64,000 bases of DNA from Acutalibacteraceae bacterium (GCA_045658105.1 JAZOUK010000005.1:90-64089); one strand, 5' to 3'; positions 11,298 to 51,380 are shown, numbered from the stretch's first letter. The notes: generated by a model from the letters alone, not told the origin. Numbers and translations are program-made.

Positions 11298-11789
11298 TCA
11301 AGCGGTTTCGTCAGCTGCTCCGCCCTTGCCATTCCACTTTGTTGGTTCTGCTTCACCGAAACGTTGATAGTGAACTATTTCTCGCTGTCTCAAAAATTTT
11401 AGTGGGTCGAGTATATCAGGATCATCAATTAGCCTTAATAAGTTATCATAAGTCACTCTTGCTTTTTGCTCTGCTGCTAAATCTTCATGCAAATCGGCAA
11501 GAATGTCTCCTTTTGCCTGAATATATTCTGCTCTCCACGGAATACCCGATGCCGCAACTGGAAATACTGCATTTGTATGATCCACAAAATATTTATCAAA
11601 ACCACTTTCCTCAATCTGTTTTTCTGTTAGATTACGAGTTAACTGATGAACCATTGCACTTACCATTTCCATATGTGCAAGTTCTTCTGTACCTATATCT
11701 GTTAGCATTCCTTTAACCTCATTAAAAGGTTGTGAATACCTTTGGGTCAAGTAACGCATTGAAGCACCTAACTCGCCGTCCGGTCCGCC
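11298..11789 (-). pseudogene. cotJC: cotJC 3' segment (Mn-catalase-family spore coat protein) separated from its 5' end by the prophage
   Basis: The in-frame sequence upstream of the track ORF reads GGPDGELGASMRYLTQRYSQPF..GTEELAHMEMV.., typical of CotJC from about residue 30. The reading frame is cut by phage sequence at the CCGCC core (11785-11789). Confidence 0.85.
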
Positions 11790-11810
11790 AAAATGCTTTT
11801 AGATATATAG
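11771..11810. other. attL (host cotJC side / phage arm)
   Basis: actcgccgtccggtCCGCCaaaatgctttTAGATATATAG. The phage arm TAGATATATAG (11800-11810) is the inverted copy of CTATATATCTA at attR. Confidence 0.75.
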
Positions 11811-11924
11811 CTTTGATAACACTTTTAAACCCACAGGAAAATTTTGACAACAATAGTTGGTATTGAAATGGTTTCCTTTGATTTATTCTAATAACACGAT
11901 TTGTCAAAAATCGAGGTTTTAGTT

Positions 11925-12329
11925 ATGTTTACAAAGGAATTATCAAGTAATCTTTTGAAAATTTTAAACGAGAAAAAGTTAACGGTTTCTGCATTGTCTG
12001 AGCTTACTCATATGTCACGGAATCATATGAATAATATAATCAGTCAAAAGCAGGTACTCTCGGTTGAAATGCTTGAAAACATTTGCTCAGGCTTAGAGGT
12101 CAATCCGGACGAGCTACTTCTAAGTGATAAGTCGAAACAAAAAGATAAATCCAAGCCAATGAAAGTTACACAAATTGTATGCAGTAAAGGAAGCAATAAT
12201 ACAATGCATTCACCAATATGCCCTGACTGCGGCAAGAAGCTGATAAAAGACAATCAGGCGTTTTGTGATAAATGCGGAAGACGTTTGAGCTGGCGTGAAT
12301 ATAGTAAAGCCGAAATGTTATACTTATGA
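11925..12329 (+). CDS. XRE-family HTH protein with C-terminal zinc ribbon
   Basis: LNEKKLTVSALSELTHMSRNHMNNIISQKQ (HTH) and CPDCGKKLIKDNQAFCDKCGRRLSW. ATG 11925 follows a GAGG. The track ORF starts at TTG 11901. Confidence 0.7.
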   Translation: MFTKELSSNLLKILNEKKLTVSALSELTHMSRNHMNNIISQKQVLSVEMLENICSGLEVNPDELLLSDKSKQKDKSKPMKVTQIVCSKGSNNTMHSPICPDCGKKLIKDNQAFCDKCGRRLSWREYSKAEMLYL

Positions 12330-12601
12330 TGGCAAAGGGCCTTAAGGCTTTTGCCGGAAGGAGCTCAGCCTTGAAATCAAAAACCGCAACCAAATCAAAG
12401 CCTATGAGAGTAAATACGGTTTACTGCCACAGAGAAGAAAATGTGTTTTCTTATAAGCCCGTATGCCCTGCCTGCAACTCTCTGCTTTCAAGTGATTGGC
12501 AGCGTTATTGCGACCGTTGCGGTCAAAAGCTCAGCTGGGAAAGGCGCATTGAATGCGAGGTAACCCTTGAAAGACCGCGGCTCAAGAAAATCGACCGATA
12601 A
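12326..12601 (+). CDS. zinc-ribbon protein, paralogous to the C-terminus of the preceding gene
   Basis: CPACNSLLSSDWQRYCDRCGQKLSW compared with CPDCGKKLIKDNQAFCDKCGRRLSW. ATGA start/stop overlap with the upstream gene. Confidence 0.55.
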   Translation: MMAKGLKAFAGRSSALKSKTATKSKPMRVNTVYCHREENVFSYKPVCPACNSLLSSDWQRYCDRCGQKLSWERRIECEVTLERPRLKKIDR

Positions 12602-12835
12602 ATGATAAGTGAAGATATTACATATACTCTACGTTGTGATACCGTTCTCGATGAAGAGGGCCAAGCGTACACCGTCTACGGTATTACAGCTTTAAATAAC
12701 TCAGGCAAGGAGCTTGCAAGCTTCCCCGATATGTTTTTCGATAAGCAAAAGGCAATTGATTTTGTAAACCTCTGCAACTCAGAGCGTTTGGAGCTTGTCC
12801 ACCTTGCCGATGTGGTAGAGGATGCCCTGCTTTAA
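12602..12835 (+). CDS. hypothetical small protein (77 aa)
   Basis: Starts 1 nt after the upstream TAA and is acidic. No motif assigned. Confidence 0.5.
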   Translation: MISEDITYTLRCDTVLDEEGQAYTVYGITALNNSGKELASFPDMFFDKQKAIDFVNLCNSERLELVHLADVVEDALL

Positions 12836-12843
12836 TGTTTTTC

Positions 12844-12872
12844 TTGCATTTAGCATATAATTGTGCTACAAT
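12844..12872 (+). promoter_or_regulatory. sigma-A-type promoter
   Basis: TTGCAT (12844-12849), a 17-nt spacer ending in TGTGC, then TACAAT (12867-12872). Confidence 0.45.
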
Positions 12873-12878
12873 GGCCTT

Positions 12879-13048
12879 GCTACAAATCCAACTGAATAAT
12901 ATTCTTATACTTAGTGTAATTTACTATGGTAAAAATACGCTGTGTTTTGTCATACGCTTATGTGTAAGAATATTCAAGGATTTGTAGCAGGATTTTTGAA
13001 GACGAGCGTATTTTTCGTGCAAGGCTTCAAAGGTCTTGCACTTTTTTT
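12879..13048 (+). ncRNA. candidate structured leader/attenuator RNA upstream of 13068 (class unknown)
   Basis: An 11-bp closing helix pairs GCTACAAATCC (12879-12889) with GGATTTGTAGC (12978-12988). A second helix pairs TGAAT..ATTCTTA (12893-) with TAAGAATATTCA (12965-12976). The terminator comes next and the RBS of the next gene follows immediately. Confidence 0.3.
13017..13048 (+). terminator. intrinsic terminator inside the leader of gene 13068
   Basis: GTGCAAG-gcttcaaaggt-CTTGCAC followed by TTTTTTTATTTTT. The upstream TTTGAAG (12996-13002) could pair with CTTCAAA in the loop as an anti-terminator. Confidence 0.5.
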
Positions 13049-13067
13049 ATTTTTGGAGGAAGTTTAA

Positions 13068-13826
13068 ATGTTTAAATCTAAAAACAAAAGCACGATAATA
13101 TTAATCCTTGTGTCAATTTTTTTAATTATGGCTTCTTTATTGTTTATTGGTTTAATTATTTTTGCAATTAATATGGATGATGTTACTGTAGATAGCAGCA
13201 TAATTAATGCCACTATAAACTCCGAAAGCGCAGATGATGAGAATACTATAAAAGGAAGCGATGTCACAGTATATAACCCAAACACCACGTCCTCTGTTGT
13301 ATCGTCTAATATCACTGAAAGTAAACCTTCATATTATAGTGAACCCGAATTAAATTCGTCACATATAGAAAGCAATAATCAAATCGATATAAATTCATCA
13401 ATAAATGAAGCAGAGAAACAATTATTTAAACAATTGTACTCGATGGCTGAATCACAATATAAATCTGAAAAAAGCTTAGAAATTTCAAATTATAATACAC
13501 AATTACAACAATGGCAAGACAAATCGGAACAATATACTAAACAAAAATATAAAGAACGTCAAATACTGGAAGAAAATTTTGCAAGTATGGGTTTATTACA
13601 GTCAGGTCAATATACTTCTGCATTAAATAATCTAAATAATAAATATGATAATTTATTGAGCGAATGTAGGGCATATATAAATCAATTAAGTGACCAAATA
13701 TCAGATTTAGAAAGAGAAAAGCAAAATCCAGACCCCAACAAAATTTTAGCAATTATTGCAACTAATAATGGAATGACACCAGCAGAAGTACTTGAAAAAT
13801 ATAATAAATATTATTTAAATCAGTAA
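13068..13826 (+). CDS. N-terminally membrane-anchored protein with coiled-coil ectodomain
   Basis: GGAGGA RBS. TM helix IILILVSIFLIMASLLFIGLIIFAI. The ...EENFASMGLLQSGQ... motif resembles EEMANMGLTNSGL in virion protein 20444-21373. Confidence 0.6.
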   Translation: MFKSKNKSTIILILVSIFLIMASLLFIGLIIFAINMDDVTVDSSIINATINSESADDENTIKGSDVTVYNPNTTSSVVSSNITESKPSYYSEPELNSSHIESNNQIDINSSINEAEKQLFKQLYSMAESQYKSEKSLEISNYNTQLQQWQDKSEQYTKQKYKERQILEENFASMGLLQSGQYTSALNNLNNKYDNLLSECRAYINQLSDQISDLEREKQNPDPNKILAIIATNNGMTPAEVLEKYNKYYLNQ

Positions 13827-13837
13827 GGAATTTTGTA

Positions 13838-14104
13838 ATGAAAAAAATATTAACTATCTTAATTATTTGCTTTTTAATATTTCAATGCGGTTGCGATAAT
13901 GAACCAAATAGCAATAATACTATTTCAAATATTCCTTCAATTCCTACCTCAGATATTATCGTTTACATAACAAAAACAGGCGAATGTTATCACACCGAAG
14001 ATTGCAGTGCCCTCAGAAAATCAAAAATTGAAAAATCATTATCTGATGTTGCGGAGCGTTACCGCCCCTGTCAGCTCTGCTATCCACCTATAATAGACGA
14101 ATAA
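13838..14104 (+). CDS. small secreted/lipoprotein-like protein with YH-x3-C...C-x2-C motif
   Basis: Signal MKKILTILIICFLIFQCGC. C-terminal IVYITKTGECYHTEDCSALRKS...RPCQLCYPP. The same motif is found at the C-terminus of ImmA-like 48806-49507. Confidence 0.6.
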   Translation: MKKILTILIICFLIFQCGCDNEPNSNNTISNIPSIPTSDIIVYITKTGECYHTEDCSALRKSKIEKSLSDVAERYRPCQLCYPPIIDE

Positions 14105-14110
14105 AAAATA

Positions 14111-14145
14111 CCGCCCCACTCCGAAAGGAATGAGGCGGATTTTTT
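14111..14145. terminator. bidirectional terminator between convergent genes
   Basis: CCGCCCCACTCC-gaaa-GGAATGAGGCGG flanked by AAAAAATA and ATTTTTT. Confidence 0.6.
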
Positions 14146-17100
14146 AGTTTTTAACCTGATTAATATAATACTGTATCAGTTTATCATAATCGTCTAAAAA
14201 CCGCATTTCTGCTTTAGATAAGAAATATTCCTGCGCCAATTCCTCCAAATCCTGCTCACGCATCTTAGAGTAAACAGATTTTGTAAGTATCGGGTCACCG
14301 TTTTTCTTTTCACCAACCATTGCGGATAAGGTGTCGTAATCATATTTACGTTCCGACTTTACCTTATCATAAGCGAACTGATATATTTTACTTATCGCAG
14401 CAACTTTTTCATCATCAGAAAGCTTCGTATATTCCTGACTATCGAAAAGCTGACCAAGCAATTCTGCGCTGTATTTTCCTGTATTGCGCTGAAAATCTGC
14501 TTTTTCTTCGGGGGTAAATATCATCTTGTTACCCTTAACTGTGAAATAATTCGGGGCTGTTCGTGGTATGACAGAATTTTCACCTGTTGATTTGTAAAGC
14601 TTATATATCTCCCCGACAACCTCGCCTGAGCTTTTAGGATACGTGTTCCACGGTGAAGCAAATGCTTCCCATTCGTCAAGATATTGCGTGTTCTTAACTT
14701 CTTCACCCAAAACATTAACCTGATTAGGTAATGTAGTTCTGAGCCCTGGTATTTTCGCTATGACTTTATTTATAGCTGATTTAAAACTATTTGTATTGTC
14801 ATAAGACGTTCTGCGGTATTCGTCAAAATAGCTTGCAGTTTGAGACCAACGTTGTGGAACAAATGCTGCCGGCTCTGCCAAAGCTGCAGTTGTTAAGGCT
14901 TCTACTATATCCTCCGAAGAAAATAAATCATATAAACTTTGTAAAAACGACTGTTGCGAAAAAGCTTTACCACCTGCCTTAATCGCCTCTACTATTGCGT
15001 TCGCTACATCGCCATCAGGATTTTCTTCTTGACTTTCCATAAAATCCGCTACAACTGCCAAAATCGAACCGAATGGTTGTGCCCAATCATAAGTAACATT
15101 CACACCGAAAAATTCTATCGAATATGGCGGAATACCCATAATGTACTTTTCATAATTTGAAGCATCTTTATCGTCATCATCATCGCCCGAAAGTTTGACA
15201 ACGCCTAACGCCGCTCCTATAGCAACAAGCGCATAAACTGTTGTTCCTGTTATAGCATTACTCATACTGCGTACAAATTCTCTTTGTAACTGAGGATTAA
15301 ATTTGCCTTTATCTATAGCATTTTTAAGCTTTTTAGCGTTAACTCCTGCCGATACAAAGCCAACAGGGGAGAAGCTTCCAATCGCTTTAGCTATGTTTGA
15401 AGGTGTTTTTATAAACTTCATAACAAAGTCGCCGAGTCCGTAAGAAGTTCCGGGTATGTGCACCATATCGTTGAGCGCCGACTTAATTTTACTCGCGGAC
15501 CTTGTAAGCTTATTATCGTCTTGCCAAGTTCTTTGTAATGCTTCCTGCTTAGCTACTTCTATCATTTCGGGTGTAGGTATTTCCAAATTATTGAGCCTCA
15601 GTTGGTTATTCAATGAATTTGTCATCCACATTTCAAAGAAAGGTCTGTCTCCTACTTCTAAGCAGAAAGAAGTAAAATTATCCATCTTATTAAGAGCCTT
15701 TGCAATAGCATCTAATTGTTTGCCCAACTTTCCGTTGTGATGCTCGTTAAAATTCTTACCTGTCGAAGCATTAAGCTCAAAACGGTTTAAATCCTCTTGC
15801 TTTGTGCGTATACCTCTTTTGAAATCGTCCCAAGATTCGTAAACACCTTTTCCAAAGCTCTTTGTGCTTTCTTTTAGACGTTCTCTGCCATCCTTTGTAA
15901 ATACGTGACCGTACATACCTGTAGACCTGTATTCAGTCTTTTTTGATACTGCTTTATCAATAGCAGTTCCGAAAAAGTCAGATGCAATAAACAACGGTGT
16001 CATACCAACGTTACCGTTTATGTTGCGGAGTATTGTTTTTAAATTTAAAAGCATATTTGACCGTTGAAGTGCCCTGATAGATTGTCCGGCTTCGGGCGGA
16101 ATCTTATCCTGAATAATATTGCATATTTTTCCAAGTGCTATAGCTTTAGGTCTTGTATTATCGTCAAATAATGCAGCTTGCAGGGTATAACGGCGAATTA
16201 ATTCAATGTCATCCTCTGTGAGCTTGAGTTTATCAGCATTTTTATCTATCCATTTTTGGGTTTTGATTTCTGCCAATTCCTCAAAAGCTTTATCCAATTG
16301 TTTTTGGGCATACAATACCATTGCATTCGGTTCAAGTCTTCCGAGTATCGAGAAAATCTGCACCTGCTGACCGCCTGCTGTTCCAAAGGCTCTTACTCTT
16401 TCGGCCGCGGCGGCAGCACTTTCATAATCACCCACACGCTGATACCTGTCCATAAGGATAAATCCTACAGCCGTATCAATAAGGCTTGCGTGTTCAGGGT
16501 CTTTGTTCCACCATTGATTTACGTAGCTTTGTCCTCCCTCGTCAAGCTCCTTTGCCGCTTTCTCAAGAGTTTCCTTGTTTGTGACCGATTTATATTTTTG
16601 AATAAAGCTATCGTCTCGCACTTCGTCCTTAAAACGTTCGTCAAAAATATCCGATTCTAAAAGGCTGCCGTAAAATTTGCTTTCCTTATCACCGTCCGAT
16701 TCGCCCTTTTTGCGTGAGTGGTGAGGTGTGGTGTTTGCATCTTCTTCGGTTAAATTCGCTATCTCTGCGGGGTTGAGAGGCTTTTGTTTTTTAACCATAT
16801 CTAAATACTCTTGCCTTGTAATCTCGCCGTTCTCGTACTGTTCAAGCAAACTTTCTGCAGAATTATCGACAGGAATGGAATAATCGTCCGTTTCCTGCAT
16901 AGAATTTTTCTTGACAGTAGGCTCAATATCGTCTATAATGTCAGTAGAAGATGTTTCGGCTCTACGGTCTTGTGCCGTATGCGAGGCATCTTCTATTTCT
17001 ATTTCTTGAAGTCCTACAATATCATACAACAATGCAACTCCTGATTTTGTTGTTCCCACAATAATGTCCGCAGAATATCCTCTATCATCCACCTTGAAAT

Positions 17101-20100
17101 CAACAATTCCCCTTGCGAACTCAACAAAATTATCACTGCGCTGATGTTTGATTTCCTCGCCAATATAATTCCTTGCGGCTTTTAACAACTCATCTGCATT
17201 ATTAAATGCATTAATTTTATCGGTATATTTCTGTTTTTCATTTGCTAAAAGGTATTGAGCATCTTTTGACCTTTGCCACTCTCTGGCAGTCCTACTGTTA
17301 ACACCGATTTTTTGTCCTGATACATTTACAAAATCATTAAATTTGTTTTTGATAATATTAGACAAGGTTGTAGCAATGTCTTTTGCGCTGTCGGTATCAG
17401 AAATTGTTTTGTTTTCCACTTGAACAAATTTATGTCCATCAGTGGATTTTTTTATACTATAACTAACCTCACCATCTGAATTGGAGTTTTCCTTAACATT
17501 CACAGCCTCGTTATAAACCTTAATAAACTCCTTTTCGATTCGATTGATTTCATAGTTTACCTTAGCGTTTTCGGAAAACTTAGATTTTAAATAGTCGATT
17601 ATATTCTTAATCACATCAAGAAACGACTTTTTATGCTTCGGTTCTAATGCGTTCATAAGCTCTGCGTTAATAGCGCGTTCACCACCAAATAAACGTCCGC
17701 CCACAAAATCCGCAAGTATTTCATCATAACACTTTGTTTCGTCAAAGCCCCTTACCTCGCTGTAGGTATCCATAATTTCGGCTTTAAACTCGTTTATAGA
17801 TGAATAACCCTTGCTGTGAAGCCATATAGAAAACGCTTTGCTGTTAAATGCCATATCCATAAAATCGGTATAAGCAGGTAAAGCTCTCTTTAAATAGTGC
17901 GTGATTTCGTGCTTGAAAATGAAGTATACAGGTCTCTTGGCGTAAAAATTAATATGAATGTTTCCGTCCTTGTCTATATAACCGTCAGGGATTTTTTTCT
18001 TGCCCTTAAACTTATCAAGCTCATAAAAATCCTCATATATTACCTTTCTTCCTAACTTCTCACCGATTTCCCGAATTTCCTCCTGCTGAGCCTTGTTTAA
18101 ATGCTTACCCTTTACAGTATCAATATCACCGAACGAGGCTATATCATCCACCCCACCCGAAGAATTTTGGAAATTATTTTCGGTGCTGTCGGGTATATTA
18201 TTATTGACACCGCTGCCATTCTGTGGTATAGTGGGGTTGAAAGATGTATCTGATGAGACATCGTTGGACTTGCGATTTTTCAAATCGTCTCCAACACCGT
18301 CCAAGGATACATCTTTTTTTATACCCCAATTATAAATTTGACTTTCTCCTTGTTTTGCAAGGTCTCTTACAGCAATTCTTACACCTACGGTTTCTTCGCC
18401 AATCTGTACGGGTGTATAAAAATAATTCCATCTGTATACATTAGGGTCGCCATCATAATCGGGAGTGGAATATAAATAACAGGAATTTTTAAATATTTCG
18501 TCAGTGGAATAAAGCATATTCGCTTTTTCTTGTGTTATTTTTTCCAAAACCTCATTTATTCCTGTATTATACAATGTCGCTTCTAAGACTTTTCCGTTAA
18601 CCTCAAACTCAAAACCTTGGTTTTTAAAGCCATTAAGAAATTGTCTAAGGTTATTTTTGAGCGTGTCCATTGCTTCTTTAAGTATTGGTGTACGTTCTTT
18701 CTTTTTCATTGAACGTAAATCAGGATATGATTCTCCAACCTTTTCCTGCGTTTCCTTAGAAACTTTAACAACATTCCCCTCTGCAACCATACGATTATGA
18801 GTTTCATTCATTATTGCTGTTTTAGTATCATTGTCAGAGTAATCAACGTTCCGCCATATTTCGCTATTACGATTTGCAAATTCCTCTAAAGTTATGCGCT
18901 CTTTATTAAGACTATTTTTATAATTACTGTAACCTACTGCCGAACCTAACGAACCAAAACCAAAACCCATAAGCGCGCCCGAAGCTCCCGCCTCTAATAT
19001 TTGCAGTCCTAATTTTTGGGCTGCTTTTTTCTTTGCGGTTTTTTCGTCAATTTTGGGGTCTTGCATATATTCCTCAACAAGCATAGCATACTGCGAAATA
19101 CCACCGTTTGTAGCATAGTCATACAAAACATTTGCGACCTCGGTGGCGGTTTCCTCGGAGGCATTTGTCAACATAGATTTGCCTAAGTTTTTGGCAAAAT
19201 CTTTAAGTCCTGTAACCGTTCCTTCCTGCATCGTCTTAAGCTGACCTATTGAAAACTTTTCGAAAAAGCCTTCAAAAGCACCTGCTGCTATACCACCCCA
19301 AAATGCTTGTTCGTTCGTACCGCCACGTTCCAGTATATCATTGGTACTATTTGCCGCTGCAGATAGACCCAAAGTAACCGCACCGACAGTCCCCGTAGGA
19401 GCAACAACAAGCGAATCCACACCCGACATAGTGGTATTATACACAAAGTCGAAAGCATCCCATTTGCCTATTTCCCAATCAACCTTTTCGGGCAATGCCC
19501 CTCTTAGAATTGATGTTGACATCGCTGCTTTATTGGTTTTTAGATTGCCTGTAATTGCATAATCAACGGAATTAAGAATATGTTCTCCCGAAGCAGCTAA
19601 ATTCGTCGCAACAGAAGCTGCGGCACTTAAATATGGATGCTCTTTCGCAAACTTAGAATTATCTTTTGCGATTTTCTTTGTTTCTCTTGCATCCAAATCT
19701 TCTTCAAGAAATTTCAAAAACTCTGTTGCTTCCTTTGCACCCTGTTCCGCATAAATATAGTTATAAATTCCTATTTCCCTATCAGTCATAAAACTGTATT
19801 TATGAAAAAGAGGGTATGCGTTACTGTTCTTACCTTTAGTTTCTATGTAAGTCTGAGCATCGTTAATATTATTTATATACTCATATGTCCAGTCAACCCC
19901 CAAGACAAACGAACCGTATTTAGCTTTCTTGGGATTTGTACTTACAACCTCACCGTCAGGAAAAGCACTATAATATCTCACCTTTTTGAAATCTTCATAT
20001 TCTTTTTTCTTGGCTTCATATTTCTCTTTATAAGGTTGTACTTTTTTATTGTTACTCCAACCAAGTTCAGCCAAATCCTTGGTAATCGGGTCAATATTAA

Positions 20101-20431: not shown

Positions 20432-20443
20432 TTCATATCCTCC

Positions 20444-21373: not shown

Positions 21374-21388
21374 TTGTTTTTTCTCCCT

Positions 21389-39802: not shown

Positions 39803-39814
39803 CACAATTCACTC

Positions 39815-40609: not shown

Positions 40610-40633
40610 TTTTTAATCCTCCTTAAACTTTTT

Positions 40634-41053: not shown

Positions 41054-41054
41054 T

Positions 41055-41357: not shown

Positions 41358-41881
41358 CCGCTATCCTCCCATAAAGCAAGCTCTTTTGGTGTAGCGGTCT
41401 CTATGCCGTTGTTTTTGCACTCTTGTATTAAAAGCTTAATAAGCCGTGACATTTGCGCAGAATCATATTCCGAAGAACCAACATAATTTACCACGTTTGT
41501 ATAACCTTTAAATTTGCTTTTTCCTAACGGCTCACACACCCAACCAAGGCCGCGCTTTTCCCATATTTCAATCCATCCGTCAACTGCATCGTTTCTTATG
41601 GGTGTTACCTGATAATTACCGCCTACTTCTTTAACAAGCACACGGTATATGTCCCGCGGAGATATCTCAAGCTTTTCCGAAAGCTGACCGCACAATTCCC
41701 AAAAGTATGCGTTTGCATCAAGACTTCGTTTGTTTTTCCAAAGACATAATTTGATTTTAAGAAGCTTATCCTTGTATTCATCGTATAACTCAAGAAAAGA
41801 TTTAGGAATTATAACCGTCAAAGCACATTCACCGTTCGTTGTCAGCAAAAGGTCCTTTATTTTACATTTTTGCTCAAACAT
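41354..41881 (-). CDS. ninB: NinB/Orf-family recombination mediator
   Basis: KNKRSLDANAYFWELCGQLS and VGSSEYDSAQMSRLIKLLIQECKNNGIE parallel lambda Orf (RSLDQNRKLWACLGDVS ... GQSTSRMRVGEFAELLELIQAFG). Confidence 0.65.
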   Translation of the reverse strand: MFEQKCKIKDLLLTTNGECALTVIIPKSFLELYDEYKDKLLKIKLCLWKNKRSLDANAYFWELCGQLSEKLEISPRDIYRVLVKEVGGNYQVTPIRNDAVDGWIEIWEKRGLGWVCEPLGKSKFKGYTNVVNYVGSSEYDSAQMSRLIKLLIQECKNNGIETATPKELALWEDSG

Positions 41882-43434: not shown

Positions 43435-43437
43435 TGC

Positions 43438-44460
43438 CTACTCCTTTTCCTTGAGCAGAAAAGCCCCTGCAGCAGAAAAGCTTCCTGTAAGCTTGCCGTC
43501 TTCGGTTTTAAAACGGCTTGCGTTATATTCTTTCGCCTGCTCAACAATTTTTTGAAGCTCTGCTTTGCGCCTTTCTTCTGCTTTCTCCGCATCCCCTTTT
43601 GCTTTTTTATATTCGCTCAGGTCAAACGTAAGTGAGAGCTCTTTGTTATACACGGTGTTAAGGCGTATGCTTTCTATTATATTTTTAGATGTATCGTGTG
43701 CTATAAATGCTTTTGGCTCATTACGGTTATCCACATCACGAAAGAAACGTTCAATACAGACATTAATTAATGCCGACAAATGAGGATTGTTTGCAAAATA
43801 GAGCATATTTACGCTTAGCTTGTCCTTAAGATATTCTGCTCTTTTTTTCTTTGACATTTGGGTTATCCTGCCACGCTCAAAAACGGTATCGTTTTCAAGC
43901 ACCATTATCTGAAGAATATAAAAATCATCCTTTGTCATAGTTATCTGATACTGCGCCTGAATTATGTATTTAAATGGTAAGCCTCTTTTAATAACATTCG
44001 GCATCATTGTTTTTTGCTCGCATACAAATTTTTTGCCCACAGGTACAAACCCACCGCCGTAATTAAACGGTTGTACATCAATTTCCTCACTGATACCGCT
44101 TATGTCAAGACTTGCAATCAGTCTGTCAGACACATAAACCGCACCGGGCTTTAGCTTATGCGTTCTCCCTGCTTGCAAAACCTTTAAACCGTATGACTCT
44201 ACTGCGTGACCGTATTCGGCAAACTCCGGAGGTACCGACTGTCTTTGATACACACCATCGTTAAGTATCTTATGGTATAACGCCCACGTGGTTGTATAAG
44301 GCTTTTCTTCCCTGAAGCGTTCGGCATTTATACCGCAGTTCTGCAGCTCCTCATCAGAAGCATAGTAACGTACAATATCGAATACCTCACTACTTCCAAT
44401 TCGTGTAAGGCGAGCCTTTTCCCATTCTAAAGAGCCTTGCTTAAGCTTTGTTTTATTCAT
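43438..44460 (-). CDS. YqaJ/lambda-Exo-like recombination exonuclease
   Basis: KQGSLEWEKARLTRIGSSEVFDI at the N-terminus. Adjacent to and overlapping the recT-like gene. Confidence 0.75.
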   Translation of the reverse strand: MNKTKLKQGSLEWEKARLTRIGSSEVFDIVRYYASDEELQNCGINAERFREEKPYTTTWALYHKILNDGVYQRQSVPPEFAEYGHAVESYGLKVLQAGRTHKLKPGAVYVSDRLIASLDISGISEEIDVQPFNYGGGFVPVGKKFVCEQKTMMPNVIKRGLPFKYIIQAQYQITMTKDDFYILQIMVLENDTVFERGRITQMSKKKRAEYLKDKLSVNMLYFANNPHLSALINVCIERFFRDVDNRNEPKAFIAHDTSKNIIESIRLNTVYNKELSLTFDLSEYKKAKGDAEKAEERRKAELQKIVEQAKEYNASRFKTEDGKLTGSFSAAGAFLLKEKE

Positions 44461-45589
44461 TACTTTTGCCGCCCTTCAATAATTTACCAAACCACGGTTC
44501 TATTATCGGAAAAGTGTTTTTGCTTCTTGCAATATTAACAATACTTGCATAATGTGTGTTAATAACTTCCTGAAGCTCGGCGCCGCCCTCAAGCAATGCT
44601 TTGATTTCATTTGCCTTATCTACAGCAAGCTTTGGATTCACCTTAAATAAATCTAAAGTTTCTTTAATATCTTCCTTTTGCTCAGCTGTAAGATTTGTAA
44701 TATCAACCTTAACAGCTTCCAGCGGAATTTCAAATTCTATTTTCTCAGGTGGCAGGAAACTTTCAGGTGGCTCGAACTCATCTTCTTTATCAAAGGCATA
44801 TATTGTATCCTTAAGCTCTGGCAATACCTCTTTAACACGTTTTAAGGCTCTGCGGATTATAGTTTTTTTCGCCATTTCACCTGTCCATTTGCACCAGAAG
44901 CTATCCGTATTAAGTTCTTCTGTTACAACCTTACGTTTACCAACAGTTCCGTTTGCTCTTGCGTATTCCACCCACTTTGTTTTATATATTCCTTGCTCGC
45001 CGGTGTTTGATATCTCAAGCATTTCCTCGGCCGACATTTCACATTCTGACATAAAACGTGTACCGTCTTTTGTATTTATAACCGTAAGCCGACATATAAA
45101 CTTTGAAAAATAATTGTTTGCAATTCTTTCAGCCATTATTTTACGGTCAGGATTTATGCGCCTATCCTCTAAAACATAAACAATCTCACCGTTATAAAAT
45201 TCCTCACGGAAATATGTAGTATCACTATCTTCCTTCGGAACAGCAACTATAGTGTCAGTAATGCGATACCCCTTACGCGCTGCTGCTCTGTAAAAAGCCT
45301 CAACTCGTGCAGAAATCGTAATCGATTTTCCGCGCTTAACAAAATCTATTTTGTCATAATCCTCGGCTTTAATTCCACCTTGGTTCAATGTCTGTAAATT
45401 AGCCAGGAAAACATTTGCCGCGTTAACCGCCTCGGCTTCTGTAAGATTATCTAATAGTTTAAGATTAGAAATAGCTTTTACTGCAAAAGGAATACAGTCT
45501 GTTTTAAGCCCGATTTCACGCTTTAGCACTTCAAATAAATTTTCAGGTGTGTTAATAAGCTGCCTGTATACAGATAATGTGTTGCTCAT
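44453..45589 (-). CDS. recT: RecT-family single-strand annealing protein
   Basis: ...FWCKWTGEMAKKTIIRRALKRV... Paired with the YqaJ exonuclease. Confidence 0.7.
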   Translation of the reverse strand: MSNTLSVYRQLINTPENLFEVLKREIGLKTDCIPFAVKAISNLKLLDNLTEAEAVNAANVFLANLQTLNQGGIKAEDYDKIDFVKRGKSITISARVEAFYRAAARKGYRITDTIVAVPKEDSDTTYFREEFYNGEIVYVLEDRRINPDRKIMAERIANNYFSKFICRLTVINTKDGTRFMSECEMSAEEMLEISNTGEQGIYKTKWVEYARANGTVGKRKVVTEELNTDSFWCKWTGEMAKKTIIRRALKRVKEVLPELKDTIYAFDKEDEFEPPESFLPPEKIEFEIPLEAVKVDITNLTAEQKEDIKETLDLFKVNPKLAVDKANEIKALLEGGAELQEVINTHYASIVNIARSKNTFPIIEPWFGKLLKGGKSNE

Positions 45590-45873
45590 CCTATATTCAC
45601 CCCATCGTAAACAACGTTCAGTATATCGATTTCAAGCGGTGTAAATCGGTCTTGTACTATTTCCGAAAATCGGTCTTTAATTTCACCGGCGCACTCCTCA
45701 CAAACAACACCATAGGTATCGTCAGTGAAATATTCTCCACAATGCTCGCACTTTTTAGCTTCTGATATTTCAGCTCCCCTGCAGGTCGGACAAACACTCC
45801 AGCGTTCTCCACTTTCCTCAGTTATAACAAAGGCTTCCTCAAACTCCGTCCCGCAATTCAAACACTTATACAT
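45586..45873 (-). CDS. zinc-ribbon protein
   Basis: MYKCLNCG...CPTCRG...CEHCG...CEEC. Confidence 0.5.
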   Translation of the reverse strand: MYKCLNCGTEFEEAFVITEESGERWSVCPTCRGAEISEAKKCEHCGEYFTDDTYGVVCEECAGEIKDRFSEIVQDRFTPLEIDILNVVYDGVNIG

Positions 45874-46117
45874 CGCCGTTCTCCTCAAGCTGCTTTTTAA
45901 AGCCTTCCCTGTAATACTTGTCCTTAAGGTCAGAAAGCTTTGAATAAAGCCGGTTAAGCTTGTCTGTCTTTAAATCAAGCTCACGCATAAGCTTATCGTT
46001 TTCTCTTGTAAGCTTAATGTTCGTGCAGCCTACATAGACTACAAAGAAAAACAAAAATATAAAAAATCCTACGCTCAGCCACATAACGGGCCCGTCTATA
46101 AAAATATAACTATCCAT
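45866..46117 (-). CDS. membrane-anchored coiled-coil protein
   Basis: TM helix VMWLSVGFFIFLFFFVVYVGC. Confidence 0.45.
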   Translation of the reverse strand: MDSYIFIDGPVMWLSVGFFIFLFFFVVYVGCTNIKLTRENDKLMRELDLKTDKLNRLYSKLSDLKDKYYREGFKKQLEENGDV

Positions 46118-46229
46118 TTTTAAATTTCTCCTTGATTTTTTAATAAATATCTGTTAAAATAAAACAAACTTATAGGCACTGTCTGCTTGTAACAAAAAGC
46201 GCCTATTTGTTTGTGTTTGGGCCACTGCT

Positions 46230-46481
46230 TTATGCAGTGGTTTTTTTAAATTCCGGGAAACGCTCATAAAAAGCTTTTTTCCTTTCGGGTGAGACTTCCT
46301 CAAGTAAAGACGCTGCCTCAGGATAAGCACTGAAGATTTCGCTCATAACTCTGCTTGTTCTGTGCACTCTTTCTCTATCCCATTTATCAAGTTCTTCGGG
46401 AGTGAGCTCCTCCATCGGCTTTGCGGAACCGTCCGGCATACGTAAAAAACCTCTTACTGTCGGTAAATCTCTTCTTCCCAT
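46230..46481 (-). CDS. hypothetical protein
   Basis: I prefer the start MGRRDLPT (GGAGG 9 nt upstream). Confidence 0.45.
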   Translation of the reverse strand: MGRRDLPTVRGFLRMPDGSAKPMEELTPEELDKWDRERVHRTSRVMSEIFSAYPEAASLLEEVSPERKKAFYERFPEFKKTTA

Positions 46482-46551
46482 ATGTATCATCCTCCTTGTC
46501 TAATAATATTTTTTAGCTGCTTTGTCCTATACCATAGCTAACCAATAACCT

Positions 46552-46755
46552 TTAGCTCCCAATAGTGGATGGCGTTGTGCCGAAATCCGATTCAAAGCCG
46601 TCTTCAGAGCTTGACAATACGGTATAAACCTTTAACATACTGTCAACGAGCTGCATATATTCCTCATTGTCATCAGCTTCGGCAGCAATATCCGCTTTAC
46701 GGTCAAGCTCTTTAAAATGGTCTGCCAATAACTTATCTGCTTCTCTCTTTTTCAT
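46552..46755 (-). CDS. hypothetical acidic protein
   Basis: AAGGAGGAAAGG RBS. Confidence 0.45.
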   Translation of the reverse strand: MKKREADKLLADHFKELDRKADIAAEADDNEEYMQLVDSMLKVYTVLSSSEDGFESDFGTTPSTIGS

Positions 46756-46767
46756 TACCTTTCCTCC

Positions 46768-46965
46768 TTATGCTTTTCTCGCACAGCCGTTTTGATACAA
46801 AAACCGCTGCGCCGTACAATAGCTTGTGGTTTTAAGTCCTTTCGACCCGACGAAGTTCCCCATCGCAACTTCTGACTTACGCCCTGTTTCCGCCATATAA
46901 TACTTTTTACCACATTTATACAGCCGACCTGCAATAGTCTCGTTCTTGTCAACGTAGTATTCCAT
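46768..46965 (-). CDS. hypothetical protein
   Basis: GGAGGTG RBS. Preferred over the overlapping ORF 46755-46973. Confidence 0.45.
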   Translation of the reverse strand: MEYYVDKNETIAGRLYKCGKKYYMAETGRKSEVAMGNFVGSKGLKTTSYCTAQRFLYQNGCARKA

Positions 46966-47031
46966 AACCGCACCTCCTTATTTAATTTGACTATCTACTC
47001 CCCACCTGTTATAATTTCTTGAAAGGTGGTG

Positions 47032-47211
47032 ATGATAATGAATGACTTTTGTCCTTTAATCAACGGTCCTTGTAATCGTAACTGTGTACTTATCGAAAAA
47101 GGACGAGGTGTATACGGTTTGACCGATTATTGCTCTTTTGCATCGGCAATCAAAAAATCAGATACAACAGTTATTACCGAGCTAAAGAAATTGGTCAACA
47201 AAAATCGTTAA
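47032..47211 (+). CDS. small hypothetical protein (opposite strand)
   Basis: AAAGGTGGTG RBS, Cys-containing, convergent with the neighbouring genes. Confidence 0.35.
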   Translation: MIMNDFCPLINGPCNRNCVLIEKGRGVYGLTDYCSFASAIKKSDTTVITELKKLVNKNR

Positions 47212-47528
47212 TCCAAATGTTGTACTATAGCCGAACCGATAACACCTATTTGTGCACTGCGCAGGATTTTCTCAGCTTCCTGTGCGGTGCATTGTTTTTC
47301 CGCTAATACATTTATTATCCTACGAACAATTTCATCCTGCTCTATCTCATTTAATGGGCGATTTCTTTTCAATGGCTCATTCACACGCCTGTTCCATTTT
47401 TTAATAGCTTCTTCTTCGCTGTAACTCGAATCGTAAATATTGGCGGCAAATTTTTTGCATTGAACAACATCATTCAGAGTATTTGTTCGCGCCTCTCCAC
47501 CGCAAAAGGGACATTTCTTCAATTTCAT
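47208..47528 (-). CDS. Lar-like N-terminal zinc-ribbon protein with C-terminal extension
   Basis: MKLKKCPFCGGEA...EEAIKKWNRRV. Confidence 0.5.
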   Translation of the reverse strand: MKLKKCPFCGGEARTNTLNDVVQCKKFAANIYDSSYSEEEAIKKWNRRVNEPLKRNRPLNEIEQDEIVRRIINVLAEKQCTAQEAEKILRSAQIGVIGSAIVQHLD

Positions 47529-47546
47529 TCTCTCACCTCACCTTAT

Positions 47547-47560
47547 TGTCGATTTCGACA
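47547..47560. promoter_or_regulatory. operator-like palindrome O1
   Basis: TGTCGA-TT-TCGACA. Contains the recurring TTTCGACAC motif. Confidence 0.4.
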
Positions 47561-47563
47561 CAT

Positions 47564-47773
47564 TTAAGCCGAAAAAATTTCGTCTTGGGTTACCCCGAAG
47601 ACGGTTGACAAAACCTTTCCTTGCTCAGATGTAAAATCCGAATATCCTTCTATCTTTTCTTTATACGTTCTTTTACATATCCCCAATATTTCAGCCATTT
47701 CATCATCACTCTTTTGGCTTAGAATTTGGAAAGCAGGAATTTTATAATATTTCTTATGTTTCTTTTTTCTCAT
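47564..47773 (-). CDS. Cro/excisionase-like small HTH protein (first early gene)
   Basis: MRKKKHKKYYKIP...MAEILGICKRTYKEKIEG. GGAGG RBS. Divergent from the repressor gene. Confidence 0.55.
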   Translation of the reverse strand: MRKKKHKKYYKIPAFQILSQKSDDEMAEILGICKRTYKEKIEGYSDFTSEQGKVLSTVFGVTQDEIFSA

Positions 47774-47794
47774 ATATTCACCTCCAAAAACGTT

Positions 47795-47844
47795 TGTGTC
47801 ACTTTCGACACATAGATAATAACACACTTCCGTTTCTTTGTCAA
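47795..47844 (-). promoter_or_regulatory. early (PR-like) promoter with operator O2 over the start site
   Basis: Minus strand: TTGACA (47839-47844), 17 nt, TATTAT (47816-47821). The palindrome TGTGTC-ACTTTC-GACACA (47795-47812) lies just downstream. Confidence 0.55.
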
Positions 47845-47872
47845 CACTTTTTTTAAGAAAATTTCATTTTTA

Positions 47873-47941
47873 TGTTGCATTTTCGACACTTTGATGTTAT
47901 AATGTCACCGTAGCCAAGGGAGCGGCGGTTGTTTCCGACAC
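47873..47941 (+). promoter_or_regulatory. lysogenic (PRM-like) promoter with operators O3/O4
   Basis: TTGCAT (47875-47880), 17 nt, TATAAT (47898-47903). TTTCGACAC is at 47881-47889 and the variant TTTCCGACAC at 47932-47941. Confidence 0.5.
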
Positions 47942-47962
47942 CTACCGAAAGGGGGTGTTGCT

Positions 47963-48025
47963 ATGGAATATATTATTTCTTTTACATTACTTGTATTAAT
48001 AATAATTATTTACATAAAGAAATAA
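47963..48025 (+). CDS. 20-aa hydrophobic peptide (leader peptide or type-I-toxin-like)
   Basis: GAAAGGGGGTG RBS. MEYIISFTLLVLIIIIYIKK. Followed directly by a hairpin. Confidence 0.3.
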   Translation: MEYIISFTLLVLIIIIYIKK

Positions 48026-48051
48026 CCGCCTACTCTGCACAGTAGACGGTT
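48024..48051 (+). terminator. hairpin after the small peptide ORF
   Basis: AACCGCCTACT-ctgcac-AGTAGaCGGTT followed by T. Confidence 0.4.
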
Positions 48052-48139
48052 TATCCTAAATAAACGGTTTATTCGCGGAAACAACTAATGCTTCCTTGTC
48101 TACATCTATATTAACATATCAGCTCTAAAATGTCAAGAG

Positions 48140-48730
48140 GTGTTTAAAATTACTATACTTGGTGAAAGATTAAAACAATTAAGAACGTCTAAGGGGTTAA
48201 ATCAAACACAATTATCAGAAGCTTTGAATGAGCGTTTTTGTTTAAAAACCGATAGAGTTATGATTAGTAAATGGGAAACCGGTTTTCAAACTCCTATGAT
48301 TCACACAATTTCTTGTATAGCAAAATATTTCAATGTTTCAATAGATTATTTGAATGGTGAAGAAGAAAAAAGTTTCCCCGACATAAACCTCCCCTCCCCT
48401 AACATCACCCAGAGCTACATTTCACTCGCCCCTGACCCGTCTCCTCAAACTCAAACCTTACTTGTATTTAATAAAAACGGTGTAGCGGGCGGTCACGAAA
48501 AAACCGTACCTTCAGATGATGTTTTGAATGAAATAAATAAACTGGCGCAGGCGTTAATGCCATATCCTGCCGAACAAATCAATTCACTCTTAACAATAAT
48601 AAAAAATGGTGGGAATATTCCTATTCAAACAGATTTACCGTCCGAGCTTAAAGAGCTTATTGCCGTTGCGGTGAATTTACCGCCCGAAAAAATAAAGGCG
48701 CTTATAACAGTAGCGGAAAATATGAAATAA
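48140..48730 (+). CDS. XRE-family phage repressor (ImmR/CI-like, no S24 domain)
   Basis: LGERLKQLRTSKGLNQTQLSEALN...ISKWETG HTH. It is followed by an ImmA-like protease gene. GTG start is uncertain. Confidence 0.8.
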   Translation: MFKITILGERLKQLRTSKGLNQTQLSEALNERFCLKTDRVMISKWETGFQTPMIHTISCIAKYFNVSIDYLNGEEEKSFPDINLPSPNITQSYISLAPDPSPQTQTLLVFNKNGVAGGHEKTVPSDDVLNEINKLAQALMPYPAEQINSLLTIIKNGGNIPIQTDLPSELKELIAVAVNLPPEKIKALITVAENMK

Positions 48731-48805
48731 ATATATTACGCTTTCTTGACTTTATTTCAGCCCCCTATATCATTAAATTATTAATAATATAGGGGGAACC
48801 ACAAA

Positions 48806-49507
48806 ATGAAATCTATCAAACATTCCGCTATCCAATTTGCAAAATCAATTAATCTTACAAACAAACGAATAACCCTAAAAGGATTATTACACGCTGCCCG
48901 TAAAAAGGGGTTCATCATTAAAAGTTATTCAGAATCAGCCACATTGCTTATGGCTTTTGGGCTTTACGATGAATCAAGAGAAGCAGACTCTGTTTCTGTT
49001 ATTGACAAATCAGGTACAGCTTATATTTTTATTGATAACCTCATTTCCGAGAATAGTCAATTATTTGCCCTTGCACACGAATTAGGGCATATTATATTAA
49101 AGCACCGCAAAACCCCGAGTCTCAAAAAGCAACAGGAAAGACAAGCCGATTTATTCGCACATTATCTGCTGTCATCAAGTAGCAGTACCCTAATAATCAA
49201 TATCGCAATTACTGTAACATCTGTAATTCTAATTACCTGTATTATTCTAATAACTGTATTTATCACATATTCAAATAATGAAAAAATAAAAACCGTTTCT
49301 GCGGAATCAGAAAGCTCTGTAAATAGTCAAAGTGCAGAAGCAAGTAATAGTACAGTTTGCTATTTTACTCGTTACGGAACAGTTTATCATATATACAGGG
49401 ATTGTTTTTATTTAAAAAATTCCACAAAAATATATACCGATACAGTAGAAGAATGTCATTTAGATAAGTTGTGTTCTGCATGTAAGCATAGGCAGTATAA
49501 AGAATAA
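48806..49507 (+). CDS. ImmA/IrrE-family metalloprotease fused to a TM segment and a YH-x3-C...C-x2-C domain
   Basis: FALAHELGHIILKH (HEXXH). TM LIINIAITVTSVILITCIILITVFI. C-terminal VCYFTRYGTVYHIYRDCFYLKNS...LCSACKH. Confidence 0.75.
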   Translation: MKSIKHSAIQFAKSINLTNKRITLKGLLHAARKKGFIIKSYSESATLLMAFGLYDESREADSVSVIDKSGTAYIFIDNLISENSQLFALAHELGHIILKHRKTPSLKKQQERQADLFAHYLLSSSSSTLIINIAITVTSVILITCIILITVFITYSNNEKIKTVSAESESSVNSQSAEASNSTVCYFTRYGTVYHIYRDCFYLKNSTKIYTDTVEECHLDKLCSACKHRQYKE

Positions 49508-49523
49508 TTCAGTTAATCTTTAA

Positions 49524-49700
49524 AGAAACGGTTTATTTAAACCATATGCAATAAAAAAGCTCATCCCTGAGAACGAGCTAAAAGAAGCCTGTAAATATTG
49601 TAATAACCGTTGGGAACTATCAGAATACTTTGGTGTGCCTGAAGACTTTATGCAAAAGGCTTTGGATTATTATGCGGAACAATTAATTTTTAAAAATTAA
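49524..49700 (+). pseudogene. orphan ImmA C-terminal remnant (no start codon)
   Basis: The open frame RNGLFKPYAIKKLIPENELKEACKYCNNRWELSEYFGVPEDFMQKALDYYAEQLIFKN* resembles the usual C-terminal end of ImmA/IrrE proteins. Confidence 0.4.
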
Positions 49701-49703
49701 TTG

Positions 49704-49732
49704 TTGACAAATTACTTTTAAATGCATATAAT
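49704..49732 (+). promoter_or_regulatory. consensus sigma-A promoter upstream of the integrase
   Basis: TTGACA, 17 nt, TATAAT. Confidence 0.6.
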
Positions 49733-49763
49733 AAACACGTAACGCAAAGTTACAAATGTTAAC

Positions 49764-49827
49764 AAGCCTTTAGAAGTAGTTGTCCCACCATATGGGAATT
49801 TACGAAAATAAAGGCTTTATTTTTTTG
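49764..49827 (+). terminator. terminator-like structure within the integrase leader
   Basis: AAGCCTTTA (49764-49772) pairs with TAAAGGCTT (49809-49817), with an inner CCCA..TGGG stem, followed by TATTTTTTT. Confidence 0.45.
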
Positions 49828-49899
49828 AGAATGAATTAAGCAAAATTTCAGCTATCGAGAAAATCTCGACAACTGCACCAATCAGAAAGGAGGAACCTT

Positions 49900-51336
49900 A
49901 TGACCGAATTTAAAAAAGCAGCCTGCTACATTCGTGTTTCAACTGATGAGCAAACCGAATATTCTCCGGATAGCCAATTAAAGCTTATTCAGGATTACGC
50001 AGAAAAGAACGATATAGTCCTGCTTGAAGATTACATCTTTATGGAGGACGGCGGTAAATCCGGCAAAAGTATGGCCAAGCGCGATAAATTTCTTGAAATG
50101 ATAGCCGCTGCCAAAAAGAAGCCTTCGCCCTTTAATATAATACTTGTGTGGAAGTTCAGCCGATTCGCGAGAAACCAAGAGGAAGCGATTACTCTTAAAT
50201 CAATGCTTAAGAAAAACGGTATAGAGGTTATCTCCATATCGGAGCCTCTACCTGAGGGACCGTTCGGTGAACTGATAGAGCGCATCCTTGAATGGCAGGA
50301 TGAATTTTACTTAACCAATCTGTCGCAAGAAGTCAAACGAGGAATGCTCGAGAGAGCCTCACGCGGCTTGCCTGTAGCTCCTCCGCCAATAGGCTATGAT
50401 TCAAAGGACGGTAAATATATCCCAAACGCCGATGCGGCTCTTATACGCGGAATTTACGAGGATTTCTTAAACGGTTTAGGACTTCGTGCTGCAGCAGTTA
50501 AATACGGTAATCTCGGAATGCGAACAACGCGCGGCAATCTGCCTGATAACAGATGTATAGAATACATTCTCCGAAATCCTGTTTATACAGGTAAGATTCG
50601 TTGGAGCTTAGACGGCCGAGCTGCATCAACCAGACACTATGATAATCCTAATATAATGGTGACCGACGGTACCCACGAACCAATAATCAGTCAGGAATTG
50701 TTTGATAACGTGCAAAAAAAGCTTGACGAGCAAAAACGAATGTATGGTAAATATCAGCGCAGGGAGCAACCGGTGCAATTTATGCTCAAAGGCTTAGTTC
50801 GTTGCTCCGCATGTGGCTCTACCCTGATTTTAATAAATTCAAAATCGCAGTCATTACAGTGCCATAGCTACGGAAGGGGAACCTGTAAGACCTCACACAG
50901 CATAACGGTTAAAAAAGCCAATGCGGCCGTCATAGCCTACCTTGAAAACGCCGTTATAACAAACGAATTTAATATAGCCGAAAACAGGATGCCAAGAACC
51001 GGCTTGCCCGGTAGCGACTATAAAAAGCTCATTGAAAACGAGAAAGCAAAGCTTAACAGAATTAAGCTTGCTTATCAAAACGGTATTGACACTTTGGAAG
51101 AATATAAGCTTAACAAAGCTAAGATAACAGAATCAATAGCAAGGTTAGAGGAAGCTGCAGCTGCAAGCGTTCCGAGGATAAACAAAAAAGAATATCGCGA
51201 ACAAGTAATTGATGTACTCAAAACAGTTCGAAACAAAAACCAACCCGAACACATAAAAAATGCTGCCCTAAGAACAATAATAGAACATATCGTGTTTAAT
51301 AAATCAAAAAATAGCTTCGAGGTTTATTTTTATTAG
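49900..51336 (+). CDS. large serine recombinase (prophage integrase)
   Basis: AACYIRVSTDEQ catalytic Ser motif, VWKFSRFARN, and a Cys-rich zinc-ribbon region (CSACGSTL...CHSYGRGTC). 478 aa. The stop is 28 nt from the att core. Confidence 0.9.
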   Translation: MTEFKKAACYIRVSTDEQTEYSPDSQLKLIQDYAEKNDIVLLEDYIFMEDGGKSGKSMAKRDKFLEMIAAAKKKPSPFNIILVWKFSRFARNQEEAITLKSMLKKNGIEVISISEPLPEGPFGELIERILEWQDEFYLTNLSQEVKRGMLERASRGLPVAPPPIGYDSKDGKYIPNADAALIRGIYEDFLNGLGLRAAAVKYGNLGMRTTRGNLPDNRCIEYILRNPVYTGKIRWSLDGRAASTRHYDNPNIMVTDGTHEPIISQELFDNVQKKLDEQKRMYGKYQRREQPVQFMLKGLVRCSACGSTLILINSKSQSLQCHSYGRGTCKTSHSITVKKANAAVIAYLENAVITNEFNIAENRMPRTGLPGSDYKKLIENEKAKLNRIKLAYQNGIDTLEEYKLNKAKITESIARLEEAAAASVPRINKKEYREQVIDVLKTVRNKNQPEHIKNAALRTIIEHIVFNKSKNSFEVYFY

Positions 51337-51339
51337 ACA

Positions 51340-51380
51340 CTATATATCTATTTGCAGTAAGCACCGCCGTATTGACTTAT
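51340..51380. other. attR (phage arm / host cotJC side)
   Basis: CTATATATCTAtttgcagtaagcaCCGCCgtattgacttat. Confidence 0.75.

Follow-up and report, generated by a model that had tools for sequence, protein, structure and literature searches.

A 64,000-nucleotide (nt) stretch of DNA from an Acutalibacteraceae bacterium (GCA_045658105.1, JAZOUK010000005.1:90-64089; the window, numbered throughout from its first letter) carries a predicted prophage that encodes its own large serine recombinase (LSR) and splits the gene cotJC, and precise excision of this prophage would restore the gene in frame. cotJC is the third and last gene of the cotJABC spore-coat operon. Its ATG lies at 51455 on the minus strand, 3 nt past cotJB, and the first 31 codons (MWKYEKKLQYPINIKNPNPKYAQIIISQYGG) run into AYCK and a stop inside phage DNA, which also supplies the third base of codon 31. 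The 3' piece (11784..11298), found 39.6 kb away on the same strand, opens with PDGELGASMRYLTQRY, and its frame is closed upstream by an in-frame TAA in the phage arm. An earlier note on this DNA had described such an interruption after cotJA and cotJB and a joined gene of about 190 codons; the coordinates and the 31-codon 5' piece could be derived afresh, and deleting 39,579 bp yields a 579-nt cotJC open reading frame (ORF) of 192 codons.

The joined gene behaves as a genuine member of its family, matching it over the full length. Its product gives an unbroken Pfam match to Mn_catalase across the join (PF05067, residues 1-176, E 2e-55) and aligns from end to end, as the note had expected, with more than 100 CotJC homologues of exactly 192 amino acids (aa), at 100% coverage and identities up to 94%. 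Against the NCBIfam equivalog for true catalases it scores 117 bits (cutoff 350), far too low for membership, which is to be expected of a short, CotJC-type protein. The LSR, the attP arms, both cotJC pieces and the large ORFs are intact, with no frameshift or stop. In the lysogen, only a 35-residue CotJC stub should be makeable from the operon promoter; a -10-like motif (CATACAAAT) lies 36 nt upstream of cotJA, with no clear -35.

Uninterrupted copies of cotJC, which it had been proposed to look for in related genomes, are carried at the same chromosomal place by three relatives (L076, L001 and L003; labels of this kind are our handles for genomes, loci and contigs). The nearest relative with an intact gene, L076 (GCA_045533475.1, JAZSHV010000004.1), is 89.4% identical to the reconstructed empty site over 6.5 kb and colinear through the join. 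Its intact CotJC, of 192 aa, is identical to the joined CotJC at 184 of 192 residues (95.8%), and its neighbours are those of the window (the oxaloacetate decarboxylase genes, cotJABC, a 56-aa ORF, DUF6788 and Fic). The arrangement recurs in L001 and L003 (85-87% identical), and the order cotJA-cotJB-cotJC is common to the window and all three. The attB sequences of the three differ at synonymous positions only (GGTGG, GGAGG or GGCGG cores). The ratio of nonsynonymous to synonymous substitution rates (dN/dS) between the joined cotJC and that of L076 is 0.043, the mark of a gene under constraint, and as this figure mixes the time before and after the insertion it carries no information on rescue by excision and gives no date for the insertion.

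The junctions themselves have the design of a serine integrase attachment site. CCGCC, in the gene's sense GGCGG (51368..51364 and 11789..11785), is present at both, as are the perfect 11-bp inverted repeats that the earlier note had placed on the phage side: both arms are exact and stand 13 nt from the same CC dinucleotide, to give a 50-bp dyad attP with a shared core of 5 bp. Inverted repeats of 11 nt are common in themselves (361 pairs in 39.7 kb), and the idea of a chance pair was considered and rejected, as the arms are placed in mirror fashion around the core and a TATATCT arm stands at equal distance in every relative examined. The 478-aa recombinase beside the junction is, as had been claimed, an LSR: its three domains (PF00239, PF07508 and PF13408) all score above cutoffs, it has the catalytic motif YIRVSTDEQ, and its stop lies 27 nt before the core. 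NCBIfam gives it partial matches to CcrB and XisF, and the few matches among solved structures include the A118 integrase (4kis), which is weak (E 3e-05). This LSR would have inserted the phage into cotJC by pairing the 50-bp attP (TATATCTA arm, 13 nt, dinucleotide, 13 nt, mirrored arm) with an attB that spans approximately codons 23-40, strand exchange falling at the GG that starts codon 31, inside the conserved motif Q-Y-G-G-P-D-G-E-L.

A contig of 64,596 bp that occurs only once in the collection and is of the metagenome type could in principle be a chimera, a contig of a metagenome-assembled genome (MAG) in which phage and host DNA have been misjoined. A misjoin of this kind would have to place both junctions in frame at the same 5-bp core, with att arms that mirror each other, in a design that recurs in more than 20 independent assemblies; we reject it on these grounds and leave it next to no weight.

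Relatives of the LSR place the same break in the same gene. A protein search finds 7,016 LSR homologues at E <= 1e-80, and siting at cotJC was read where flanks are readable. Thirteen genome loci carry an LSR 69-84% identical to that of the window, in Acutalibacteraceae, Clostridia and uncultured Ruminococcus MAGs from animal and human guts; wherever there is sequence downstream of the LSR (10 loci, 69-79% identical), cotJC is broken at the window's codon in 10 out of 10 and starts some 30-70 nt after the LSR stop. The same codon is used in L019 (LSR 64% identical) by a different phage with a giant PolyVal-ART protein, in L021/L022 (57%) by yet another phage with PcfJ, an N6 methylase and DnaN, and in seven IMG/VR contigs (42%). 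A query of viral contigs with the LSR protein alone confirmed no relative. Every LSR relative with a readable flank, down to about 42% identity, thus sits at this cotJC codon, in both orientations. Use of one site by unrelated phages implies that the recombination unit is shared among them, as for SPbeta-type units (PMC6957869). As read from the flanks, targeting of this cotJC codon is a property of the whole LSR clade in gut Clostridia.

Three observations on individual members of this clade stand apart. L012 and L013 belong to the same MAG (RGIG8652), one LSR contig abutting the 5' piece of cotJC and the other the 3' piece, which could reflect a mixture of strains or a single gene invaded by two phages that face each other. 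L006 and L007, also from one MAG, each hold an LSR copy, and their contigs break off within the gene. In L005 (4560-7428, LSR 79% identical) the 3' piece of cotJC is broken again at residue ~65 (GIEE before the break, KYCAF and a stop after it) by foreign DNA with a 181-aa ORF, RepL-like by eye, and the contig ends soon after.

The two orientations help to place the crossover. Across 12 junctions the arm reads TATATC[TC][AT] and is followed, after 13 nt, by CC where the LSR faces the 5' piece of cotJC, as it does in the window (L009-L012, L015 and L021), or by GG where it faces the 3' piece (L005, L008, L013, L014, L017 and L019). The central 2-bp crossover is the sole determinant of insertion polarity in LSRs; since CC or GG tracks orientation, we infer that the crossover is the GG starting codon 31. 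Orientation within the clade would then have been switched by flipping the central dinucleotide in attP. PQ006094, a circular free phage whose LSR is 43.5% identical to that of the window, has an attP of the same design directly after the integrase (TTATTATATCTT-CTAGCAGTAAGTA-CC-TCC...AAGATATAATAA), and its core, of the GGAGG type, would suit the GGAGG attB of L001. This suggests, by indirect evidence, that free phages exist within the LSR clade.

Other recombinases have found other sites in the same gene. A search of IMG/VR with the joined CotJC finds 37 viral contigs, 36 of them with a 3' piece of cotJC that mostly lies close to a contig end; the remaining one, L059, carries cotJB and CotJC residues 1-69. 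The match starts at residues 20-30 in L023-L032 (at about residue 30 in the seven contigs L026-L032), at residues 58-65, in the metal-binding motif E-E-L-A-H-M-E, in the 25 contigs L033-L057, and at residue 113 in L058. LSRs 22-24% identical to that of the window lie directly upstream of the break in L034-L035, L039-L043, L045-L046, L049-L055 and L058; by Pfam, those of L039 and L058 have the full set of three LSR domains, and that of L054 has Resolvase and Recombinase. Judging by IMG taxon id, several of L033-L058 derive from cultured organisms, and the isolate genomes in IMG with a prophage in cotJC include 650716026, 649989958, 2839891887, 2876110513, 2914989346, 2703719307, 2791355329 and 2703719182. 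Judged by these break points, at least three LSR lineages use three sites in cotJC. The gene has been named a recurrent integration target before, by Abe et al. 2013 according to the citing passage of a preprint (bioRxiv 10.1101/2021.11.22.469490); the searchable literature yielded no paper characterizing the att sites, the LSR clade or the phage biology of a cotJC-splitting phage. New here would be an integrase clade dedicated to one cotJC codon, its naturally flipped polarity, and a target gene with three sites.

The insert looks like a whole temperate tailed phage. Modules for lysogeny, replication, packaging, head, tail fibre and lysis are mostly found (Table 1), and the prophage body has 38.8% G+C, the flanks 35.9%. 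Since the phage looks whole, its status is that of SPbeta rather than that of a skin-like remnant. The earlier note had called it an element in the style of skin and SPbeta, and that description holds for the anatomy of both and for the status of SPbeta, a full-looking phage; it does not hold for the status of skin, a defective remnant. At a position similar to that of the 2095-aa ORF which ends the window's virion module, the unrelated phage of L019 has a 2741-aa ART-PolyVal protein.

We rank first, at a probability of roughly 0.55, the reading that this is an ordinary active temperate phage for which cotJC is a conserved and tolerated landing site. Lysogeny would probably be held by the cI-like repressor and the ImmA-like protease, with induction by the usual stress route, and excision would need the LSR together with a recombination directionality factor (RDF) and would rejoin cotJC exactly. 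CotJC-like catalases are reported to be dispensable for formation of the spore coat in Clostridioides difficile (PMC11222575), so the phage could sit in cotJC at little cost.

Several points weigh against this reading. No tape-measure protein or clear holin was recognized in the phage, whose completeness is judged from its modules; the missing tape measure means that it may be short-tailed. A start-less ImmA-type relic follows the ImmA-like gene, a sign of some local decay: in 49508-49700, between that gene and the LSR promoter, we also note that the frame ends in KKLIPENELKEACKYCNNRWELSEYFGVPEDFMQKALDYYAEQLIFKN and a stop, has no start, and resembles a C-terminal ImmA-type remnant. No attP junction was found in viral or metagenome contig collections: the exact attP 30-mer and a degenerate pattern for attB, attP, attL and attR each have 0 matches in viral contigs, and the 16 matches of the degenerate pattern in metagenome contigs are all attB-like, in intact cotJC of other organisms, with no attP and none close to the species of the window. 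A same-species attB is likewise missing from the contig collections and from an exact-sequence look-up, the exact joined CotJC from a collection of 15 billion proteins, and exact matches to the LSR and to the 153-aa CotJC fragment from the contig index. The host Era and the phage major head protein are each alone in their cluster in the protein collection, which means that the species is represented by the lysogen contig alone and offers no same-species empty site for comparison. That the prophage is inducible, or excises at all, is something we infer. Finally, the recombinase-bearing elements in mother-cell genes that have been tested were excised during sporulation, which favours more weight for a developmental reading.

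The relic, the lack of a recognized tape measure or holin, and the lack of an attP junction or same-species attB in the collections would also suit a decaying or fixed cryptic prophage, with cotJC permanently lost in the lineage. We hold this to be very improbable, given that large ORFs, LSR, att arms and cotJC pieces are all intact and that the attP arms still mirror each other perfectly over 11 nt; the dN/dS of the joined cotJC against L076, a figure that spans both periods as said above, also speaks against it.

The developmental alternative, which we rank second and regard as quite possible at less than even odds, is a switch of the SPbeta type. The prophage would be kept in the forespore and the germ line, and in the mother cell an RDF under sigma-E or sigma-K control would join a constitutively made LSR to excise it and rebuild cotJC for the coat. 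The anatomy is that of SPbeta in spsM and skin in sigK, in that an LSR lies next to the junction and the gene rejoins exactly and in frame, and at least three unrelated LSR lineages converge on three sites of one sporulation gene. The tested cases (skin, SPbeta, vfbin, vrin, gin and yin) excise during sporulation or in a growth-phase-dependent manner. cotJ-type operons are mother-cell-specific in model organisms: in Bacillus subtilis the cotJ operon is sigma-E dependent. That of C. difficile is sigma-K dependent (PMC3789822), and by homology to these two organisms cotJC would be expressed in the mother cell here too. The LSR has a constitutive-looking promoter, which fits both C. difficile skin, whose CD1231 is free of sigma-E and SpoIIID control (PMC3789822), and SPbeta, where the RDF gene sprB sets the timing of excision (PMC6957869).

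What such a switch would need in addition was looked for and did not appear. Sporulation promoters and a small RDF gene had been suggested as places to look for control of excision, and neither emerged. In a regex scan of the phage, sigma-K-like matches number 5 (4.6 expected by chance), strict sigma-E matches 0 (2.0 expected) and looser sigma-E matches 2 (2.2 expected); the only well-placed sigma-E/K match overlaps the perfect sigma-A promoter of the LSR, which also fits AC-N16-CATATAATA. A comparison of 15 relatives finds no conserved promoter upstream of the LSR, and the LSR upstream regions are not conserved. None of the 17 small phage ORFs is RDF- or excisionase-like by Pfam or PHROGs. 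A weak lead is the 86-aa acidic early ORF, which is common to the LSR flanks of six relatives at 40-49% identity; no other phage protein, the repressor, the ImmA-like protein and the LSR excepted, has matches in two or more relatives. The reported dispensability of CotJC-like catalases in C. difficile (PMC11222575) means that selection for rescue may be weak, and no excision junctions were found in sequence collections. Since both insertion orientations occur, excision cannot in general be triggered by transcription reading through from the cotJ promoter. As a side observation, no terminator-like site lies on the plus strand between the LSR stop (51336) and 52303, so that a transcript from the LSR promoter could run antisense through the truncated cotJC, cotJB and cotJA, and cotJ transcription antisense into the LSR.

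Mother-cell removal of a prophage that interrupts a sporulation gene has been described mainly in Bacillus and in a small number of pathogenic Clostridium; the same anatomy is now found in uncultured gut Clostridia, at scale, in a coat gene with three target sites. In B. subtilis, SPbeta in spsM is likewise a full-size, active-looking phage inside a mother-cell sporulation gene, with the LSR beside the junction, exact rebuilding of the ORF and a constitutive-looking LSR promoter (PMC4191935, PMC5499854, PMC6957869). It differs from the window in target gene, host class (here gut Clostridia, Acutalibacteraceae-like) and phage type, and along with its SprA integrase it has the RDF SprB, whereas no sprB-like RDF or sporulation promoter was identified in the window phage. 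The skin elements of sigK (with SpoIVCA/Skr in B. subtilis and CD1231/CD1234 in C. difficile) also put an LSR inside a mother-cell gene, and in C. difficile it is the RDF that governs the timing, the recombinase being free of sporulation control (PMC3789822, PMC5025042). Skin is a defective remnant in sigK, a gene essential for sporulation, unlike the window phage, which looks whole and sits in a gene that is probably dispensable. The elements vfbin (spoVFB), vrin (spoVR), gin (gerE) and yin (yabG) are also recombinase-bearing mobile elements inside sporulation genes, and their excision has been proven experimentally.

More distant likenesses exist outside sporulation. The Listeria phages A118 and phi10403S split comK with an LSR, and their excision without lysis restores comK (active lysogeny), but the trigger there is intracellular growth rather than sporulation and the sequence relationship is very distant. 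The Anabaena XisF likewise is an LSR that removes an element from a gene, fdxN, in a terminally differentiated cell, the heterocyst; the window LSR is no XisF equivalog, its match being sub-threshold (E 2e-29, 103 bits, cutoff 375), and the fdxN element is no phage. The C. difficile phage phi027 adjoins a CotJC-like gene and does not lie within it.

It is a more tentative proposal still that cotJC-splitting phages are a widespread, repeatedly evolved switch in gut Clostridia, excising in the mother cell or in a subset of cells. Were this true, lysogeny would tune spore-coat composition and the heterogeneity of spores in the gut while the phage keeps its place in the germ line, and the clade would provide natural proof that a flip of the 2-bp crossover in attP reverses polarity at one attB. 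If excision is tied to sporulation, lysogeny would shape the properties of spores and hence the transmission of gut commensals; if it is not developmental, cotJC is simply a well-resolved integration site. The clade is also useful for integrase engineering, as a set of natural serine integrases whose 50-bp attP is defined, whose attB is conserved and whose polarity has been flipped in nature.

Table 1. Features of the split cotJC locus and of the prophage inside it, in window coordinates.
Feature	Position	Strand	Remarks
cotJA	51719..51997	-	Pfam CotJA, E 1e-12
cotJB	51459..51722	-	Pfam CotJB, E 2e-23
Truncated cotJC 5' ORF	51348..51455	-	codons 1-30 and 2 bases of codon 31 are host (51455..51364)
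cotJC 3' piece	11298..11784	-	last base of codon 31, codons 32-192, stop
Core copy, LSR-proximal junction	51364..51368	+	CCGCC; inferred crossover dinucleotide 51364-51365
Core copy, distal junction	11785..11789	+	CCGCC; inferred crossover dinucleotide 11785-11786
LSR-proximal attP arm	51340..51350		CTATATATCTA, exact; 13 nt from central dinucleotide
Distal attP arm	11800..11810		TAGATATATAG, exact; 13 nt from central dinucleotide
Predicted attB			contains AGTCAATACGGCGGACCGGACGGCGAG
Predicted attP			contains AAAGCATTTTGGCGGTGCTTACTGCAAA
Prophage body	11790..51363		39,574 bp; 39,579 bp with one core copy
LSR, 478 aa	49900..51336	+	Pfam Resolvase, Recombinase, Zn_ribbon_recom
Promoter-like site upstream of LSR	49704..49732	+	TTGACA-17-TATAAT, 12/12; consensus match only
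ImmA/IrrE-like metallopeptidase	48806..49507	+	Pfam Peptidase_M78
cI-like helix-turn-helix (HTH) repressor	48140..48730	+	Pfam HTH_3
Early/replication/recombination module	39815..47827	-	Lar-like, RecT-like, RecE-like, helicase, NinB, HNH, SSB, replication initiator
86-aa acidic early ORF	46230..46490	-	phrog_26314, function unassigned; weak RDF lead
Packaging/virion/lysis module	14144..34318	-	
TerL (large terminase)	32593-33990	-	
Major head	30627-31514	-	
Tail-fibre-like	27426-30307	-	
M23 peptidase/endolysin	26388-26975	-	
Portal	23979-25811	-	
740-aa virion protein	within 14144..34318	-	
2095-aa ORF, end of virion module	14144-20431	-	sole match a weak PHROG; function unassigned
Distal cassette beside junction	11901..14104	+	small ORFs
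HTH and zinc-ribbon regulator	11901-12329	+	
Rest of distal cassette		+	zinc-ribbon 91 aa, DUF6514 77 aa, then 50-, 252- and 88-aa ORFs
Terminator-like site in distal cassette	13017-13041		

Beyond the 3' end of cotJC the window contains what resembles another insertion, independent of the prophage: a defence island next to the cotJ locus. A direct repeat of 98 nt (91% identical; 4450-4547 and 9741-9838) duplicates the 3' end of Fic and brackets a 5.3-kb block with AbiH, a NACHT-like ATPase and a DUF4209 protein. The cargo that follows Fic is different in L001, L003 and L076. Leftward, this defence and mobile region is extended (1517-3042) by a TIR/SEFIR-domain protein (1517-2206) and an HTH_7-bearing small resolvase (2353-3042).

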